Source: a virus. Taken from it: a stretch of 64,000 bases of DNA. The stretch spans positions 1 through 64,000 of the IMG/VR virus record IMGVR_UViG_3300025115_000004, one strand, 5' to 3'. Of this stretch, positions 1 through 17,398 are shown in pieces (the stretch's first letter is position 1; each line of letters begins with the position of its first letter). The position numbers and the translations under genes are program-made. Under the pieces are notes generated by a model, which was not told the DNA's origin, searched no databases, and saw only the letters and a program-made list of their open reading frames with translations.

Positions 1-145
1 GTATTATATCAAAAATGTTAATTCACAGATAATAATAAAATTACCGAGGCAGTAAAAATATTTGCCAAAACATTTGTTTATTAAAAAAACATTACACATT
101 TTCAAAAAAATAGCATTAAAGTATTGCTAATTCAAATAATATTAC

Positions 146-153
146 TATCTTTG
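146..153 (+). promoter_or_regulatory. Bacteroidota-type -7 promoter element (TATCTTTG) upstream of the cassette array; Pc-like position
   Basis: Matches TAnnTTTG, with TTG about 19 nt upstream (124-126). Confidence 0.5.
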
Positions 154-210
154 ATATGCTTACTGAATACACTATGCTAATAAAAGAAATTATAACGGCC
201 CCAAAAGCAG

Positions 211-474
211 ATGCGATTATTCCTTCGGGTGTATTCGGTAAGCCTTCTGTTTGCGGGGCTTATATATTTTGTCATGGAAACAATCTATAAATTTAAGGGA
301 AACATTGAGGGCAAGGAGGCTATCTGTAATGTATCAGAATGTACGTTTCAGTCTAACAAACCTAATGTTATGATTTTACCCGCTGATATGTGTACTGAGG
401 AAAGCGGAATTATTAAGATAACAAAAAGGGATTTTAATTGGTTGGCAAAAAATCATAAAATAGTATATAAGTAA
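211..474 (+). CDS. Hypothetical protein (true start probably ATG 274)
   Basis: ORF track; its 5' part overlaps a hairpin at 191-264; TAATG coupling to the next ORF. Confidence 0.55.
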   Translation: MRLFLRVYSVSLLFAGLIYFVMETIYKFKGNIEGKEAICNVSECTFQSNKPNVMILPADMCTEESGIIKITKRDFNWLAKNHKIVYK

Positions 475-731
475 TGGGACGGGAAAGATGCGCAATGATT
501 GAGCAGCGTTCCGGGAAGCTGTATTGTGGATATTATGATACTGGATGTCGGCAGTGTTCTGAAATTAAAAATTGTCCTGATGGGTTAGATGATGATTCTG
601 ATTATTTTCTTGAATCAGATATTGATGAGGTAGATCCAGTCCGTACTTTGGATTGTGTTAGCGGCGTGTTTCAATGCACGCTAACGGTTCTCGCATATAC
701 GAAGTGCGGGAATTTGAAACACAAAACATGA
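474..731 (+). CDS. Cys-rich/acidic leader protein reading in frame through the first GTT site (657)
   Basis: ORF track; codon 62 is the GTT of GTTAGCG. Confidence 0.55.
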   Translation: MGRERCAMIEQRSGKLYCGYYDTGCRQCSEIKNCPDGLDDDSDYFLESDIDEVDPVRTLDCVSGVFQCTLTVLAYTKCGNLKHKT

Positions 732-810
732 ATTATGCAGAAAAGTTTATTTGAAAATGCAGAGTTTGATTTACCACAGAACCCCGCATTGCGTATATGC
801 GATGTTGTGT
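679..810 (+). repeat. attC-like site 1 (CGCTAAC...GTTGTGT)
   Basis: Arms TCGCATATACGAAGTGCGGG (691-710) and CCCGCATTGCGTATATGCGA (783-802). Confidence 0.75.
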
Positions 811-1466
811 GCAGTTGCGGCTTTTCAGACGAAAGCCCCAAAGCTCTTTTTTTTATTGAGCAAGTAGATTATCAAACAGCAATGAAAATTGTAATTAATA
901 ACCACTATTTACATAGAAAGGCACCTTGCAGTAAAGCGTATGGACTTTTTTGTAACTCCTGCAAAACTATTGTAGGTGTAGTGGTGTATGGAACTCCATC
1001 ATCTTCAACTTTAAGAATGCTTTGCGGTGATGATGAGATAAATAATGTGATTGAATTAACAAGGCTTTGGATAAAAGACGGAACACCAAAGAATACAGAA
1101 AGTTTTTTAATTGGAAACACTGTTCGTAAAGTAGATAAGGAAATTATTGTAAGTTTTGCTGATACATCAGAAAATCACTTAGGGATTGTTTATCAGGCTA
1201 CAAATTGGATTTATACTGGATTAAATGCATCAGGAACTCAGAGATTTTTAGATGGTAAACCAATAACATTTCAGGCATATAAAGACAGACAAGATATTTC
1301 AAAACTGAAAGAAATTTATGGGGATAGACTAACAGTAGGGAAAAGAACACGGAAACACAGATACATTTTCTTTAATGCAAGGGGCAATAGAAAAAAAGAG
1401 CTTTTTGAAAAATTGAAATACAAGGTTGAGCCTTACCCGAAAACTTCAATAGATGCAGGGTCGTAG
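735..1466 (+). CDS. mom: Mom-like (GNAT-fold) DNA adenine modification protein
   Basis: Motifs HYLHRK, ELTRLW..NTESFLI, SFAD...HLGIVYQATNWIYTG typical of the Mu Mom-like family. Confidence 0.75.
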   Translation: MQKSLFENAEFDLPQNPALRICDVVCSCGFSDESPKALFFIEQVDYQTAMKIVINNHYLHRKAPCSKAYGLFCNSCKTIVGVVVYGTPSSSTLRMLCGDDEINNVIELTRLWIKDGTPKNTESFLIGNTVRKVDKEIIVSFADTSENHLGIVYQATNWIYTGLNASGTQRFLDGKPITFQAYKDRQDISKLKEIYGDRLTVGKRTRKHRYIFFNARGNRKKELFEKLKYKVEPYPKTSIDAGS

Positions 1467-1473
1467 CAATTGC

Positions 1474-1538
1474 ACACAACGGATCGGTAATAAAATTGCG
1501 TTGAGGTTACGAAATGAATTTTATTATCCGTGTTAGGC
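1474..1538 (+). repeat. attC-like site 2 (ACACAAC...GTTAGGC)
   Basis: Arms GGA..TAATAAAATT and AATTTTATTATCC; canonical GTTRRRY end. Confidence 0.75.
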
Positions 1539-1576
1539 GTAGAACTTATTAGGATTTAATCACGAAATAAAAATTA

Positions 1577-1834
1577 ATGGCGATGGCAGCAATAGATAAA
1601 ATTTACGGAACCGAGGAGCAATATGCAGAATTAAAATTATGGCTTCAAAATAACAAGCCTTCTGCAATAAAATATCTTTACATGGAAGGCGGATGGATGA
1701 ATAATGAAGAAAGACCGATTAGTAATTTTCCGACAAGAATAGATAAGTGGTTGCTTAAAAACTGTTCTATCAAATGGGTGCAAGAAAGGCTAAGAGAACA
1801 ATACGGATTAAAACGCAATGAGATCACAGGCTAA
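1577..1834 (+). CDS. Hypothetical cassette protein
   Basis: ORF between GTTAGGCG (1532) and CGCCTAAC (1859). Confidence 0.7.
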   Translation: MAMAAIDKIYGTEEQYAELKLWLQNNKPSAIKYLYMEGGWMNNEERPISNFPTRIDKWLLKNCSIKWVQERLREQYGLKRNEITG

Positions 1835-1852
1835 TTTTTATTTCGGTTTTGC

Positions 1853-1984
1853 GCCTAACGGACACAAATAAATACAGAAGCGGTATGAAAAAAGAAATAC
1901 GTAAAATATTAAAGAAACTTCAAGATGGTAAGTTGGCTGTGTTTCAAGCGGAGCAGCAGCTTTTGGATTTATTTGCTGTTATAA
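1853..1984 (+). repeat. attC-like site 3 (GCCTAAC...GTTATAA)
   Basis: Arms CAAATAAATACAGAAGC and GCTTTTGGATTTATTTG. Confidence 0.7.
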
Positions 1985-2157
1985 ACTGGGTGGCGTTCGA
2001 CTTCTACAAACTTGAAACACGACCACCCAAATACGGGAGGTATCTGATATGCAGAAAAGATGGTAAAATTCATTGGGAAACTTGGAACGGGAATGGGTGG
2101 GCTTATAATCACAACGAAATTCGATACTGGGCGGAAATTAAGCCACCTTGTTTATAA
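1885..2157 (+). CDS. DUF551-like small phage protein; N-terminal 31 aa encoded inside the attC loop
   Basis: W...RPPKYGRYL...WNG.W...IRYWAEI.PP pattern; ATG 1885 is in frame with GTT 1978; its stop TAA lies in the next R'' (TTATAAC). Confidence 0.6.
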   Translation: MKKEIRKILKKLQDGKLAVFQAEQQLLDLFAVINWVAFDFYKLETRPPKYGRYLICRKDGKIHWETWNGNGWAYNHNEIRYWAEIKPPCL

Positions 2158-2251
2158 CGAATGGGGCTATGTTTTAGTTTTTGCCTTGCAGAAACTCCAT
2201 TATTTGAATAAAACTTTATAAGGCAAAAATTAAATATAGCCCGTGTTATCG
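2152..2251 (+). repeat. attC-like site 4 (TTATAAC...GTTATCG)
   Basis: Arms GGGCTATGTTTTAGTTTTTGCCTT and AAGGCAAAAATTAAATATAGCCC. Confidence 0.75.
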
Positions 2252-2268
2252 GCTTTTAATCTTTATTT

Positions 2269-3018
2269 ATGAATTTAGAAGAAAAATCAATCGAATTTAT
2301 CCGAAAAGTAGCAGAAAGTTACAAAGGACAACAATTATATGCAGGGAATAGCGGTGGAAAAGATAGTGCGGTACTTGATTACCTATTGCAAAAAAGTGGC
2401 ATAGAATACAAAAGCTACTATACCAATACAACTATTGACCCAATCGGAACTATACGCCACATAAGAGAAAATTACCCGCACACCGAAATATTGCAACCAA
2501 AACTTACCTTTTACCAATTGGTTGAAAAGAAAGGATTGCCGACTCGATTAAATCGTTATTGCTGTGAAAGATTAAAAGAGTATGGAAGTGTTGGTAAAAT
2601 AGTTTTTGAAGGAGTAAGAAGTGCCGAAAGTAGCAAAAGAAGTGGTAGAGACTACATACAATGCGACAACCGCAAATGGCAAAAAGGAAGCCAACACATA
2701 TATCCATTGTACGAATGGACTGATGAAGATATTTTAAACTTTATTGCAGAAAAAAATATACAACTTGCGCCTGCATATAGTTTAGGATTAAAAAGACTTG
2801 GCTGTGTTGGTTGCCCATTGGTAAGCAGAAAAGGACACCGACAACACGAATTTGAACTATACCCAAAATATTACGAAGCTATTAAAAAAGCAATTCAAAA
2901 AGGTATGAATAATAACCCACAATGGAAACTTACTCAATTATCAAATTGTGATAGTCAAAAAGCAATGGATTGGTGGTTAAGTGGCAAAACAATGAATGAG
3001 TGGTTTGGCTCTCTTTAA
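2269..3018 (+). CDS. PAPS reductase / PP-loop family protein (probable DNA-modification enzyme)
   Basis: SGGKDS PP-loop, RYCCERLKE, GVRSAES..R, RLGCVGCP. Confidence 0.85.
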   Translation: MNLEEKSIEFIRKVAESYKGQQLYAGNSGGKDSAVLDYLLQKSGIEYKSYYTNTTIDPIGTIRHIRENYPHTEILQPKLTFYQLVEKKGLPTRLNRYCCERLKEYGSVGKIVFEGVRSAESSKRSGRDYIQCDNRKWQKGSQHIYPLYEWTDEDILNFIAEKNIQLAPAYSLGLKRLGCVGCPLVSRKGHRQHEFELYPKYYEAIKKAIQKGMNNNPQWKLTQLSNCDSQKAMDWWLSGKTMNEWFGSL

Positions 3019-3022
3019 TTGC

Positions 3023-3063
3023 CGATAACTACCGGATAAGTTAACATCTTGTTAATTTATCCG
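3023..3063 (+). repeat. Terminal truncated attC-like site or hairpin
   Basis: CGATAAC followed by hairpin CGGATAAGTTAACA/TGTTAATTTATCCG; no following GTT. Confidence 0.55.
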
Positions 3064-3107
3064 CACAAAACAAGTGTATAGATAGAAAAAGACTTAACAT
3101 ATACAAC

Positions 3108-3245
3108 ATGAAAGACCAGACAAGACTACCAGAAGATTCCGATACAATAGTGGAGCTTATTGCTATTGTATGTGCATTCTTCATGGTTATGGGCGTGATT
3201 GCATTTATTGTGTCTATTGTATTACTTATTAAATATATTTTATGA
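3108..3245 (+). CDS. Small single-TM membrane peptide (45 aa)
   Basis: Manual translation MKDQTRLPEDSDTIVELIAIVCAFFMVMGVIAFIVSIVLLIKYIL. Confidence 0.5.
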   Translation: MKDQTRLPEDSDTIVELIAIVCAFFMVMGVIAFIVSIVLLIKYIL

Positions 3246-3415
3246 AAAAGACAGAAGTAGCAATCAGATTAACATGGAGCAAGGTAATGGCATTTATTAT
3301 CCTTGCTTGTAGTATGTTCCTTGACATAGCTATTGAAGGAAGGGCAAGCACCTTCTTTATGGCTGCGCCTCTTGCTGCCGGGCTTATTGCCGTACCATGC
3401 TTATGGTGTAGGTAA
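3242..3415 (+). CDS. Small two-TM membrane peptide (57 aa)
   Basis: ATGA overlap with previous ORF; two hydrophobic segments. Confidence 0.5.
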   Translation: MKKTEVAIRLTWSKVMAFIILACSMFLDIAIEGRASTFFMAAPLAAGLIAVPCLWCR

Positions 3416-3540
3416 ATATCACAGCCTTGGTAAGGAATACCCTATGCCTGACATCGTCCCGCCCACCAAAGAGCGGATGATAACTATAAAGAAGTTCTTA
3501 GAAGAGACTGTCCCAAACTTGACAGTCCATGTAGGATAAA

Positions 3541-3565
3541 AAAAGGCGGGATCAACCCGCCTTTT
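3541..3565. terminator. Bidirectional intrinsic terminator between convergent units
   Basis: AAAAGGCGGG-ATCAA-CCCGCCTTTT. Confidence 0.7.
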
Positions 3566-3950
3566 CTATAATCTCCTCTTTACGCTGTTTTAACCTCTGG
3601 ATCGTGTAATCAATGATTGCACAGGCCGTGTGATTAGGTAGCGTCATGTGAATAGATACTATATCCTTCAAATCTTTACTAGGATAAAACCTTGTATACC
3701 CGCAGGTAATAGGTCTGGGAAGCTCATCTGAATCCGGATCGAAGTCCATATCAGGAGGGAAGAATAGAGGTTCCATAATAGGCCTCATATTGACATCCTC
3801 AGGAAGATTTTCCATAGATATGTCCACATCTACAGGCGATTTTAACAACCTCTTACCTAGCTCTTCCAGCATAGCTATTTGAGAATCAATATACTTGATC
3901 TCCTCAAACTGCTTGGAGGCCTTCTGTAGTTTAATCAGATTTGGATGCAT
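3552..3950 (-). CDS. Hypothetical protein
   Basis: ORF track; TATATTTG promoter element at 3963-3970. Confidence 0.65.
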   Translation of the reverse strand: MHPNLIKLQKASKQFEEIKYIDSQIAMLEELGKRLLKSPVDVDISMENLPEDVNMRPIMEPLFFPPDMDFDPDSDELPRPITCGYTRFYPSKDLKDIVSIHMTLPNHTACAIIDYTIQRLKQRKEEIIEKAG

Positions 3951-3977
3951 ATGCTATTTTTACAAATATAGTGATTA

Positions 3978-4118
3978 TTAGGACTCCTGCTCATTCATAG
4001 CGCAGGGTACACAAGTCTTCAAACCATCATTGTCAGCATAGTTACATCCCTTAGACACAAGTGTCCCACATAGGGGACACTTGAATCTATAATAGGATAT
4101 CCGGATGATGAACTTCAT
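3978..4118 (-). CDS. Small zinc-ribbon protein (46 aa)
   Basis: Manual translation with CPLC...CVPC; ATGA overlap with upstream gene. Confidence 0.55.
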   Translation of the reverse strand: MKFIIRISYYRFKCPLCGTLVSKGCNYADNDGLKTCVPCAMNEQES

Positions 4119-4777
4119 ATCCTGAAGTTAGATATATGATCATATTCGGCTTTCAATACGGCCAGAGCCTGCTCAGCCTCGTACTCACTTATAGCCCAAG
4201 TCTGACGTTTCTCCCACACTTCAGAAGACTCTTCCTCTATTTTTGCCAACATCTTGTCTCTGATCACAGGAGAAGGGTAGTATCTGGTGATATTACCAGA
4301 AGGATCAATGTGCTTGATGACCATGAAACGATCAGTACCTATCTTCCTCTGATGGAGGTAATAATGGACTCTATCATGAGCCTCAGAACTGGATACACCT
4401 ATATACACCATCTCATTATCCTTGTAGACCCTGTATTTCCGGCCTTTAGGGGTCTGATCCTTACGGTTCAGAAGTTTAATAAAGTCCATAGGTTCCTCCC
4501 TTGCATCGATCTTGGTCTCAATACGCATCAGATACTGATTGTACACTACTACCTCATCAGGTTTCAGGCAGCCTCCTCTATAGATGTCGATAAAATCGAG
4601 TTCTACCAACACCAGCCTGTGCTTCTCTTTGAAGTGGGTGAAGTAACGATTAGTTTTGGGGAGATGCCCCCATTCCTCCTTACCTGACTGGGTAATAACC
4701 TTTACTTTCTCCAATTCTTTCCTCATGGCTACATCAATAACCATCTCAGTGTCGAGCGAATACATAGTCCTATCCAT
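4115..4777 (-). CDS. Hypothetical protein
   Basis: ORF track; TAGCCATG junction with previous gene. Confidence 0.7.
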   Translation of the reverse strand: MDRTMYSLDTEMVIDVAMRKELEKVKVITQSGKEEWGHLPKTNRYFTHFKEKHRLVLVELDFIDIYRGGCLKPDEVVVYNQYLMRIETKIDAREEPMDFIKLLNRKDQTPKGRKYRVYKDNEMVYIGVSSSEAHDRVHYYLHQRKIGTDRFMVIKHIDPSGNITRYYPSPVIRDKMLAKIEEESSEVWEKRQTWAISEYEAEQALAVLKAEYDHISNFRI

Positions 4778-16846: not shown

Positions 16847-17398
16847 TTATTTTTCAAGTTTACCCATTACTCCGCGATCAATCCTCTCCTTCACCCGGGC
16901 ATTAAGCCATAGCAAGGCCTCTTCCATCTTGGTAATAGCAAGTGCACCTTCTCTTGATGGAAACGCATTATTGAGCTTCTTGTGCCTGTCAATAAGGGCA
17001 ATAAGCAACTGCTCACTCTGAAGACCCGGTGTCATCGATCCGTCACTTTCCTTCTTCACAAATTGAATCCTCTGGAAAGAATTGTGATAACCGGTCTCGC
17101 CATTGTTGAACCCGGTACAGTTCTGAAAGTGATACTCATGAGCACCGCCATACTCATCACCGCCCCTTGCTGCAATAGTGATCTTATTGCTGGGAAACAC
17201 AGGGGACTGAAGTTTTGCGTCAAGAGGAAACGGCTCTCCCTCTGTCAGCAACAGCTCATGATAAGCCTCTTCGAATACCTCTTTCGGGCTCCACGACTCA
17301 TACCCATCAGGGTAAATAACACGATAACCTTCGCGGCCATCTTTAACAGCAGGCTCTGCCTGAATTGTTTTTGTTCCAATGTACTTTTTCATAATCAC
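16847..17398 (-). CDS. Acb2/Tad1-like nucleotide-sponge domain fused to an N-terminal KYIGTK...SWSPK domain
   Basis: C-terminal SREGALAITKMEEALLW hairpin motif; N-terminal YIGTKTIQAEP...GYRVIYPDGYESWSPKEVFEEAY. Confidence 0.6.
   Translation of the reverse strand: MIMKKYIGTKTIQAEPAVKDGREGYRVIYPDGYESWSPKEVFEEAYHELLLTEGEPFPLDAKLQSPVFPSNKITIAARGGDEYGGAHEYHFQNCTGFNNGETGYHNSFQRIQFVKKESDGSMTPGLQSEQLLIALIDRHKKLNNAFPSREGALAITKMEEALLWLNARVKERIDRGVMGKLEK

Follow-up and report, generated by a model that had tools for sequence, protein, structure and literature searches.

Clusters of attC recombination sites lacking an integrase (CALINs) have been described in virulent phages, including Polaribacter phage P12002L, where they carry methyltransferase cassettes (Qi et al. 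2023, PMC9892861). The P12002L sites were called with IntegronFinder/HattCI, and IntI1 recombined one of them, P12002L_attC2, only on the bottom strand (PMC9892861). That study was the closest literature to the array analysed here, which lies at positions 686–3029 of a 64,000-nucleotide stretch of viral DNA (hereafter the window), the first 64 kb of the 78-kb IMG/VR phage record IMGVR_UViG_3300025115_000004 (about 94% complete). The host presumably belongs to the Bacteroidota. To our knowledge, IntI is almost unknown in that group, and the prevailing view of integrons is that they are bacterial, depend on IntI and hardly occur in Bacteroidota. The comparisons below suggest that 686–3029 probably comprises four mobile cassettes, exchanged at TAAC|G (the bar marking the junction), of a system that resembles integrons and is widespread among phages infecting Flavobacteriia-type hosts.

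The four units abut to the base on the + strand, the first beginning right after position 685 (Table 1). Each opens with AAC and about 5 nt of spacer; a stem, its loop and the return stem follow, then 1–3 nt and GTT, and a gene with its closing AAC completes the unit. An earlier reading of the sequence alone (the original prediction) had reported imperfect inverted repeats bounded by AAC and GTT, all of which were present where it had placed them. It had also claimed that each gene's start complements its own end and not the partner end across the hairpin, and the complementarity was seen in all four units: the 14–17 nt on the GTT side of each gene body (R') were complementary to 14–17 nt at its own closing AAC (R''), with one G.T in the 15 nt of unit 1 (804–818 / 1466–1480). 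A detector for AAC-hairpin-GTT plus a GTT...AAC repeat, run on the whole 78-kb genome, returned exactly four units and nothing similar elsewhere. In 40 dinucleotide shuffles of the genome it returned one unit in total and no abutting pair, at thresholds that the four real units passed easily. The block was more A/T-rich than the rest, as had been noted (G+C 0.355 at 657–3029 vs 0.416 at 4001–64000). The TAnnTTTG promoter proposed in front of it had to be dropped, with one match in 1–3300 against 1.6 expected by chance.

As had been proposed, DNA-modification genes feature strongly in the cargo. The open reading frame (ORF) of unit 1 encodes a Mom-like DNA-modification protein (Pfam PF25680 Mom, 2.8e-39; phrog_1384), and its cassette was also present in another locus (L005). 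The gene of unit 4 encodes a PAPS-reductase-like PP-loop protein (PF01507, 2.1e-15; phrog_424). The 85-aa ORF of unit 2 and the 90-aa ORF of unit 3 had no Pfam or PHROG match.

Sites of the same family were found in many other phages. Hairpin 1 (682–806) had matches of 76–79% identity in 27 Flavobacterium phage records, directly upstream of methyltransferase genes, and 21 IMG/VR contigs contained a 21-mer taken from its loop; in all relatives homology extended from TAAC to GTT, the stems covaried and the genes downstream differed. In bacterial genomes the 21-mer was found only in two tiny contigs of metagenome-assembled genomes, probably of phage origin. The array architecture occurred in about 30 other phage contigs as well as in cultured Flavobacterium and Polaribacter phages, and their abutting one-gene units with TAAC-hairpin-GTTA sites and a fixed G.T are also a feature of the array in the window. 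From about 30 loci, seeded from one hairpin loop and one cargo gene, the detector returned 88 distinct units in chains of up to 12. Across these 88 units R' paired with the R'' of its own gene at 10.6 of 12 positions, a value inflated by a detector that selects for such pairing, vs 5.4 of 12 with the R'' on the other side of the hairpin, as many as random pairing gives.

From 39 non-redundant sites RNAalifold gave a prediction of 16 stem pairs, 15 of which showed compensatory changes; one pair was G.T in 37/39 sites and never G:C. A second fixed G.T was located at position 11 of the gene-flanking R stem (54/80 units), and a G.T lay 15 nt before GTT in 62/88 units. Spacers in the family measured about 5 nt on the 5' side and 1–2 nt on the 3' side. 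The L boxes were checked for the extrahelical bases of attC sites: they held no extra bases, and the near-invariant G.T mismatches and a one-sided bulge of 4–5 nt possibly serve the same role. At all five sites of the window the + strand folded more stably than the - strand. The sites of the four units span 52–119 nt from AAC to GTT, which was counted as attC architecture (an imperfect palindrome of 57–141 nt). The start codon lay inside the hairpin loop in 33/88 units, and the stop codon was the TAA of TAAC in 26/88. Among loop motifs only A-rich words (AACTT, TTGAA) were enriched, with no clear promoter, and an Rfam scan of 1–4000 returned no family above noise. In the GenBank annotation of phages mumin, filifjonk, tooticki, mymlan and snork (L048–L053), the array genes are given only as methyltransferases or hypotheticals; hairpins, loop starts and cassette-wise differences between isolates are absent from it.

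The piece that moves was read from cassettes shared between unlike neighbourhoods. In seven non-syntenic pairs (five cassette families) the upstream hairpin was 93–97% identical, identity was at background (about 0.6) in the 60 nt past the terminal AAC and also in the 57 nt that precede the hairpin, and the downstream hairpin was not retained with the gene in any of the seven. Unit 4 (2154–3029) was 88% identical to two other loci (L025 and L026) over exactly hairpin and gene and nothing beyond; it recurred in contigs from two other samples with unlike flanks, breaking at 2155/2156 and 3029, which brings its contexts to at least four. The near-identical cultured Flavobacterium phages mumin6-1 and mumin6-3 differed by a 506-nt indel of exactly one unit, TAAC|GTT...ATAAC|GTT. 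Among six Flavobacterium phage isolates, which share 97–100% identical segments, 47/122 homology ends fell within 6 nt of AAC|G vs 7% at random, and most of the remaining ends inside arrays fell in the adjacent conserved R'' or L''. Since the upstream hairpin is kept, homology is lost after AAC and indels run from TAAC|G to TAAC|G, the crossover appears to lie 5' of the hairpin on the coding strand. As judged from these alignments, the mobile unit is the hairpin together with the downstream gene, and its junction is TAAC|G(T/G)T. On the complementary strand it would read as a classical integron cassette (TT...content...AAC-hairpin-G) with an inverted ORF. With the unit so defined, ORFs that start in the loop and read through GTT cross no recombination point.

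The original prediction had placed the exchange at G|TT, 3' of the hairpin, as in classical integron cassettes in coding orientation (TT...gene...attC...G) moved by an IntI outside the window or in the host. The order of ORF followed by AAC-hairpin-GTT is that of integrons, and the complementarity of R' and R'' fits this explanation equally well. It also gains from one isolate breakpoint on the GTT side and from one gene family that is 96% identical with hairpins only 77% identical, which together indicate that some exchange at GTT, or hairpin conversion, also occurs. Against it stand the loss of the downstream hairpin in 7/7 non-syntenic pairs, the entry of unit 4 with its upstream hairpin into at least four contexts, the TAAC|G-to-TAAC|G indels, the position of an attI-like spacer and recombinase at the 3' end of the coding-strand array in relatives, and the lack of any IntI in the phage or in 301 sampled Flavobacteriales genomes. 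The classical orientation with IntI is thus largely refuted, and we regard it as very improbable. The comparison of related phages that had been proposed for gain and loss at GTT did reveal near-identical isolates that differ by exactly one unit, with indels running from TAAC|G to TAAC|G.

The inverted repeats of 9–17 nt that flank every gene could also be taken as the ends (GTT...AAC) of small transposons or elements like miniature inverted-repeat transposable elements, mobilised by a transposase in trans. The mobile unit, however, is not bounded by these repeats, as it includes the hairpin on one side only; target-site duplications were absent, neither the cargo nor the phage genes that were scanned included a transposase, and units abut without spacers. 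This origin is hardly tenable.

The search for an enzyme was negative in the phage itself and yielded a candidate in relatives. The 78-kb genome had no PF00589 match for a tyrosine recombinase and no match to the Xer-like recombinase of related phages, and the window had no attI-like conserved spacer, the terminal hairpin at 3033–3063 being unlike the spacer of relatives. Tyrosine recombinases were likewise absent from the complete genomes of filifjonk, mumin, a 120-kb phage and P12002L. No recombinase was detected among the 20 largest early- or replication-region proteins (Pfam-only scan) or among 55 cassette ORFs. A search of 301 sampled Flavobacteriales genomes with TIGR02249, which lacked a positive control, gave no integron integrase above cut-off.

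In a 169-kb phage (which holds locus L004), an array of at least 22 abutting units (96,871–115,657) ends about 50 nt before the gene for a 289-aa tyrosine recombinase (L056:304–1173), whose best NCBIfam match was XerA-like (206 bits) and whose IntI score was 155 vs a cut-off of 265. Three further contigs carried relatives of this recombinase, 76–79% identical. A conserved spacer lies between differing last cassettes and the recombinase start codon in four phage contigs (G003, L058, L059, L060); a spacer conserved while the last cassette varies is attI behaviour. This platform of recombinase and spacer sits at the 3' end of the G.T strand, the place of attI on the bottom strand of an integron. 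Homologues of the recombinase were found in 86/401 sampled Flavobacteriales genomes (E <= 1e-50, about 40–46% identical). Units or strong AAC-hairpin-GTT sites lay within 1.5 kb of six of the ten best-matching loci, with clear arrays in both loci that were enlarged. In these two bacterial arrays (L072, L073) the G.T strand is antisense to the genes, the classical orientation, and in phages it is the sense strand. Both are short arrays in Flavobacteriales chromosomes adjoining the Xer-like homologues (L072, G355:C1:1352000-1371900; L073, G371:C1:1826000-1845900); recombinase and cassette genes are divergent in L073, as in integrons, and co-directional in L072. The proposal of an IntI-type integrase was therefore not upheld: the phage lacks a PF00589 match, no TIGR02249 match exceeded the cut-off in the sampled Flavobacteriales genomes, and the arrays of relatives end at a Xer-like recombinase. 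Of the related suggestion that the integrase lies outside the window or is supplied by the host, the second part stays plausible for a host enzyme, and the genome beyond the window held none.

Both P12002L sites were mapped through the primer table of PMC9892861. P12002L_attC2 is the terminal site just after the R'' of gp35 (the last cassette) and was called antisense to the genes. Its recombination on the bottom strand only agrees with the phase proposed here, because the bottom strand of that site is the gene-sense strand. The loop of P12002L_attC1, TCGTTTTAATG, recurs in four of the loci (L028, L030, L032, L034).

Alternatively, the hairpins and gene-closing stems may act mainly in RNA, in start-codon display, translation insulation or mRNA processing, with ordinary recombination in the short conserved junctions shuffling the modules among co-infecting phages. 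The strand that carries the structure is the one transcribed, RNA helices recognised by proteins typically have a G.U-type pair such as the near-invariant one here, start codons often lie in loops (33/88 units) behind A-rich leaders, and most of these phages lack a recombinase. A general tolerance of G.U as a sign of RNA was examined and rejected, as G.T and A.C were equally frequent in the R stems apart from the fixed position (33 vs 35). A role in RNA would also leave unexplained the stems of 300–900 nt span that join the two ends of each gene, the conserved spacer beside the recombinase gene, the bacterial arrays with the G.T strand antisense to the genes, and the fact that IntI1 recombined the terminal site of a related array. 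We consider it unlikely as the main function.

Exchange of hairpin-plus-gene cassettes at TAAC|G remains the preferred explanation, and several observations, besides the GTT-side breakpoint and the divergent hairpins given above, weigh against it. The indels between isolates have the 7-nt direct repeat TAACGTT on both sides, so that they may have arisen by slippage or microhomology recombination. Variants upstream of the Mom gene in the source sample join at 737, 88, 93 and 640, not at TAAC|G, and direct evidence of recombination was not found in this phage. P12002L_attC1, a gene-sense site of the present hairpin family, gave no IntI1 recombinants (PMC9892861), and the site that did recombine, P12002L_attC2, is the terminal one. 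The geometry is unlike that of canonical attC, with spacers of 5 nt vs 1–2 nt and fixed mismatches in place of extrahelical bases. The link between recombinase and sites is one of adjacency, and the seeding of the loci biases the prevalence figures. No circular cassette junction was seen in the assembled contigs. The neighbouring gene at 4115–4777 found no related locus among the viral contigs searched, so that cassette turnover could not be read in the phage's own lineage.

In the proposed mechanism each cassette would pair a single gene with the folded recombination site that precedes it. This site would comprise TAAC, some 5 nt of spacer, a covarying stem of about 12–24 bp with the conserved G.T, a loop, the return stem, 1–2 nt and GTTA. 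Gain and loss of cassettes would take place at TAAC|G, which on the coding strand lies 5' of the hairpin. In circular form a cassette would contain one long hairpin, R''-L''-loop-L'-R', which would explain why the two ends of each gene complement each other. The coding strand would correspond to the recombinogenic 'bottom' strand of an integron attC with every gene backwards; a third of the genes would start inside the loop and many would stop in the TAA of TAAC. The likely catalyst would be the Xer-like tyrosine recombinase encoded beside arrays in some phages and Flavobacteriales chromosomes. As this phage lacks one, exchange here would depend on a copy in the host or in a co-infecting phage.

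We therefore regard the array as a CALIN-type store whose inverted, integron-like cassettes belong to a Xer-like system, and the view of the block as mobile gene cassettes joined by attC-like folded sites is supported. The cargo (Mom-like and PAPS-reductase-like here, methyltransferases in relatives) points to the swapping of anti-restriction DNA-modification genes as its presumed function. There is perhaps an even chance that Bacteroidota and their phages run a cassette system parallel to integrons, in which a Xer-like recombinase acts on folded TAAC...GTTA hairpins with a fixed G.T, and in which phages carry inverted cassettes whose hairpin doubles as a translation-start module. If this is true, even virulent phages without a recombinase can trade anti-restriction genes singly. 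It can be tested directly, as cultured Flavobacterium phages that differ by single cassettes and the hosts LMO6 and LMO9 exist.

Table 1. Coordinates of the array and its surroundings in the window (nt; stem arms separated by a slash).
Feature	Position	Strand	Details
TAnnTTTG match (TATCTTTG), promoter of the original prediction	146–153	+	sole match; not evidence of a promoter
R'/R'' pair without a gene between (GTTAGCG...CGCTAAC, 29 nt)	657–685; arms 657–663 / 679–685	+	precedes unit 1
Hairpin site 1	686–803	+	5-nt spacer; 20-bp stem 691–710 / 783–802; 72-nt loop with A-rich leader and ATG at 735
Unit 1	686–1480	+	hairpin 1; R' 804–818; Mom-like ORF 735–1466; R'' 1466–1480
Unit 2	1481–1859	+	short hairpin 1486–1497 / 1517–1528; R' 1532–1545; 85-aa ORF 1577–1834; R'' 1846–1859 (14 nt)
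Unit 3	1860–2158	+	hairpin 1865–1881 / 1959–1975, ATG 1885 in loop; R' 1978–1994; 90-aa ORF 1885–2157; R'' 2142–2158 (17 nt)
Unit 4	2159–3029	+	hairpin 2164–2187 / 2220–2242; R' 2245–2259; gene 2269–3018; R'' 3015–3029 (15 nt)
Terminal hairpin, 14 bp, without GTT partner	3033–3063; arms 3033–3046 / 3050–3063	+	after the last AAC; end of array

The gene-less pair ahead of unit 1 begins like methyltransferase cassettes at other loci (GTTAGCGGC) and is probably the relic of a deleted cassette body; ORF 474–731 passes in frame through its GTT. Inside the R'/R'' pair of unit 2 a second perfect 14-nt inverted repeat (1563–1576 / 1832–1845) hugs the 85-aa ORF and resembles a nested stem. The terminal hairpin folds at -9.7 kcal/mol (z -6).

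The last 127 nt of the record repeat window positions 737–863 exactly, after a copy of the unit 2 leader (1533–1585; L023:13863–14044, genome 77,863–78,044). With this terminal repeat, the record has the appearance of a circle of about 77.2 kb to which a tail of 736 nt is attached. Judging by contig depths in the source sample (15 + 19 = 34), two variants seem to coexist upstream of the Mom gene, and the 5' arm of hairpin 1 is missing from one of them. The same contigs showed a 624-nt cycle (88–686 plus 25 other letters, closed via the 31-mer 657–687) and a joint from 93 to 640, which could be a tandem copy, a circle or a graph artefact.

Elsewhere in the genome, 5111–5995 (- strand) encodes a 294-aa protein that matched phrog_6247 'DNA topoisomerase' (2e-91) with no Pfam hit, and Spo11/TopoVI-A-like motifs (LRQLYYQL, DFDPSG) were recognised by eye. 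It was considered as a candidate enzyme for the array and rejected, as it is not common to five other array-bearing phages. An Acb2/Tad1 hairpin domain (PF24729, 1.7e-6) at 16847–17398 (- strand) marks a possible sponge for cyclic-nucleotide defence signals. A Mre11/Rad50-like pair (Metallophos and an SMC/AAA_23 protein) was found at L023:5413–8991, in a stretch that also holds a family A DNA polymerase, a PDDEXK nuclease, RNase H and a Dda/PIF1-like helicase; in the circular variant about 75 nt separate the end of the helicase gene from the array.

Short structured sites that bound mobile modules are known from other systems. The pdif sites of Acinetobacter plasmids are 28-bp double-stranded Xer sites without long hairpins, and the shuffling of promoter-stem-loops (PeSLs) in T4-type phages presumably acts via homologous recombination. 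In both, as in the present array, short structured or inverted sites delimit separate gene modules that are shuffled among replicons; unlike the array, neither shows complementarity of a module's own two ends. Xer enzymes can also act on folded DNA: in CTXphi, the substrate of host XerC/D is folded single-stranded DNA with a bulged centre. The R'' end (..GCATAA|C) may resemble Xer-binding arms. Integrase-less Bacteroidetes microviruses (PMC3091885) and Flavobacterium phage CjT23-like prophages (PMC9719478) use host Xer enzymes (XerC/D, dif-like sites). The present phage is like these in lacking a recombinase and relying, as proposed, on a Xer-type enzyme; there, whole genomes integrate at dif, whereas here single genes would be exchanged within arrays.

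The CALIN of P12002L shares the site family, the methyltransferase and Mom cargo and the lack of an integrase with the present array, and one of its sites was recombined by IntI1. Qi et al. 2023 differ in that two divergent sites were called, and no cassette phase, inverted genes, long arrays, conserved G.T or cognate recombinase were described; the array here has four abutting units and those of relatives up to at least 22. No paper was found on the inverted phase, the fixed G.T or the Xer-like platform, and as far as could be found the Xer-like cassette system is undescribed.

With integrons, sedentary chromosomal arrays and their homogeneous attC families included (IntegronFinder 2.0, PMC9024848), the system shares R''-L''-loop-L'-R' sites ending in AAC and GTT, mutually complementary cassette ends, compact one-gene cassettes with stops in TAAC, one site family common to unrelated genes and, in relatives, a recombinase beside a conserved site. 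It differs from them in several respects. The recombinase is Xer-like and below the IntI cut-off, and the genes are inverted relative to the site, the loop of which is used for translation start. The order of ORF then attC with a G|TT boundary holds only on the antisense strand, and no attI or Pc promoter is found at the array head in the window, the attI-like spacer being present in four recombinase-bearing relatives. Integron logic (folded sites, one-gene cassettes and the signature of circular permutation) would organise up to at least 22 genes in phages of Bacteroidota with a recombinase of a different clade and with inverted genes, and it offers a mechanism by which virulent phages may swap methyltransferases, Mom and similar anti-restriction genes.

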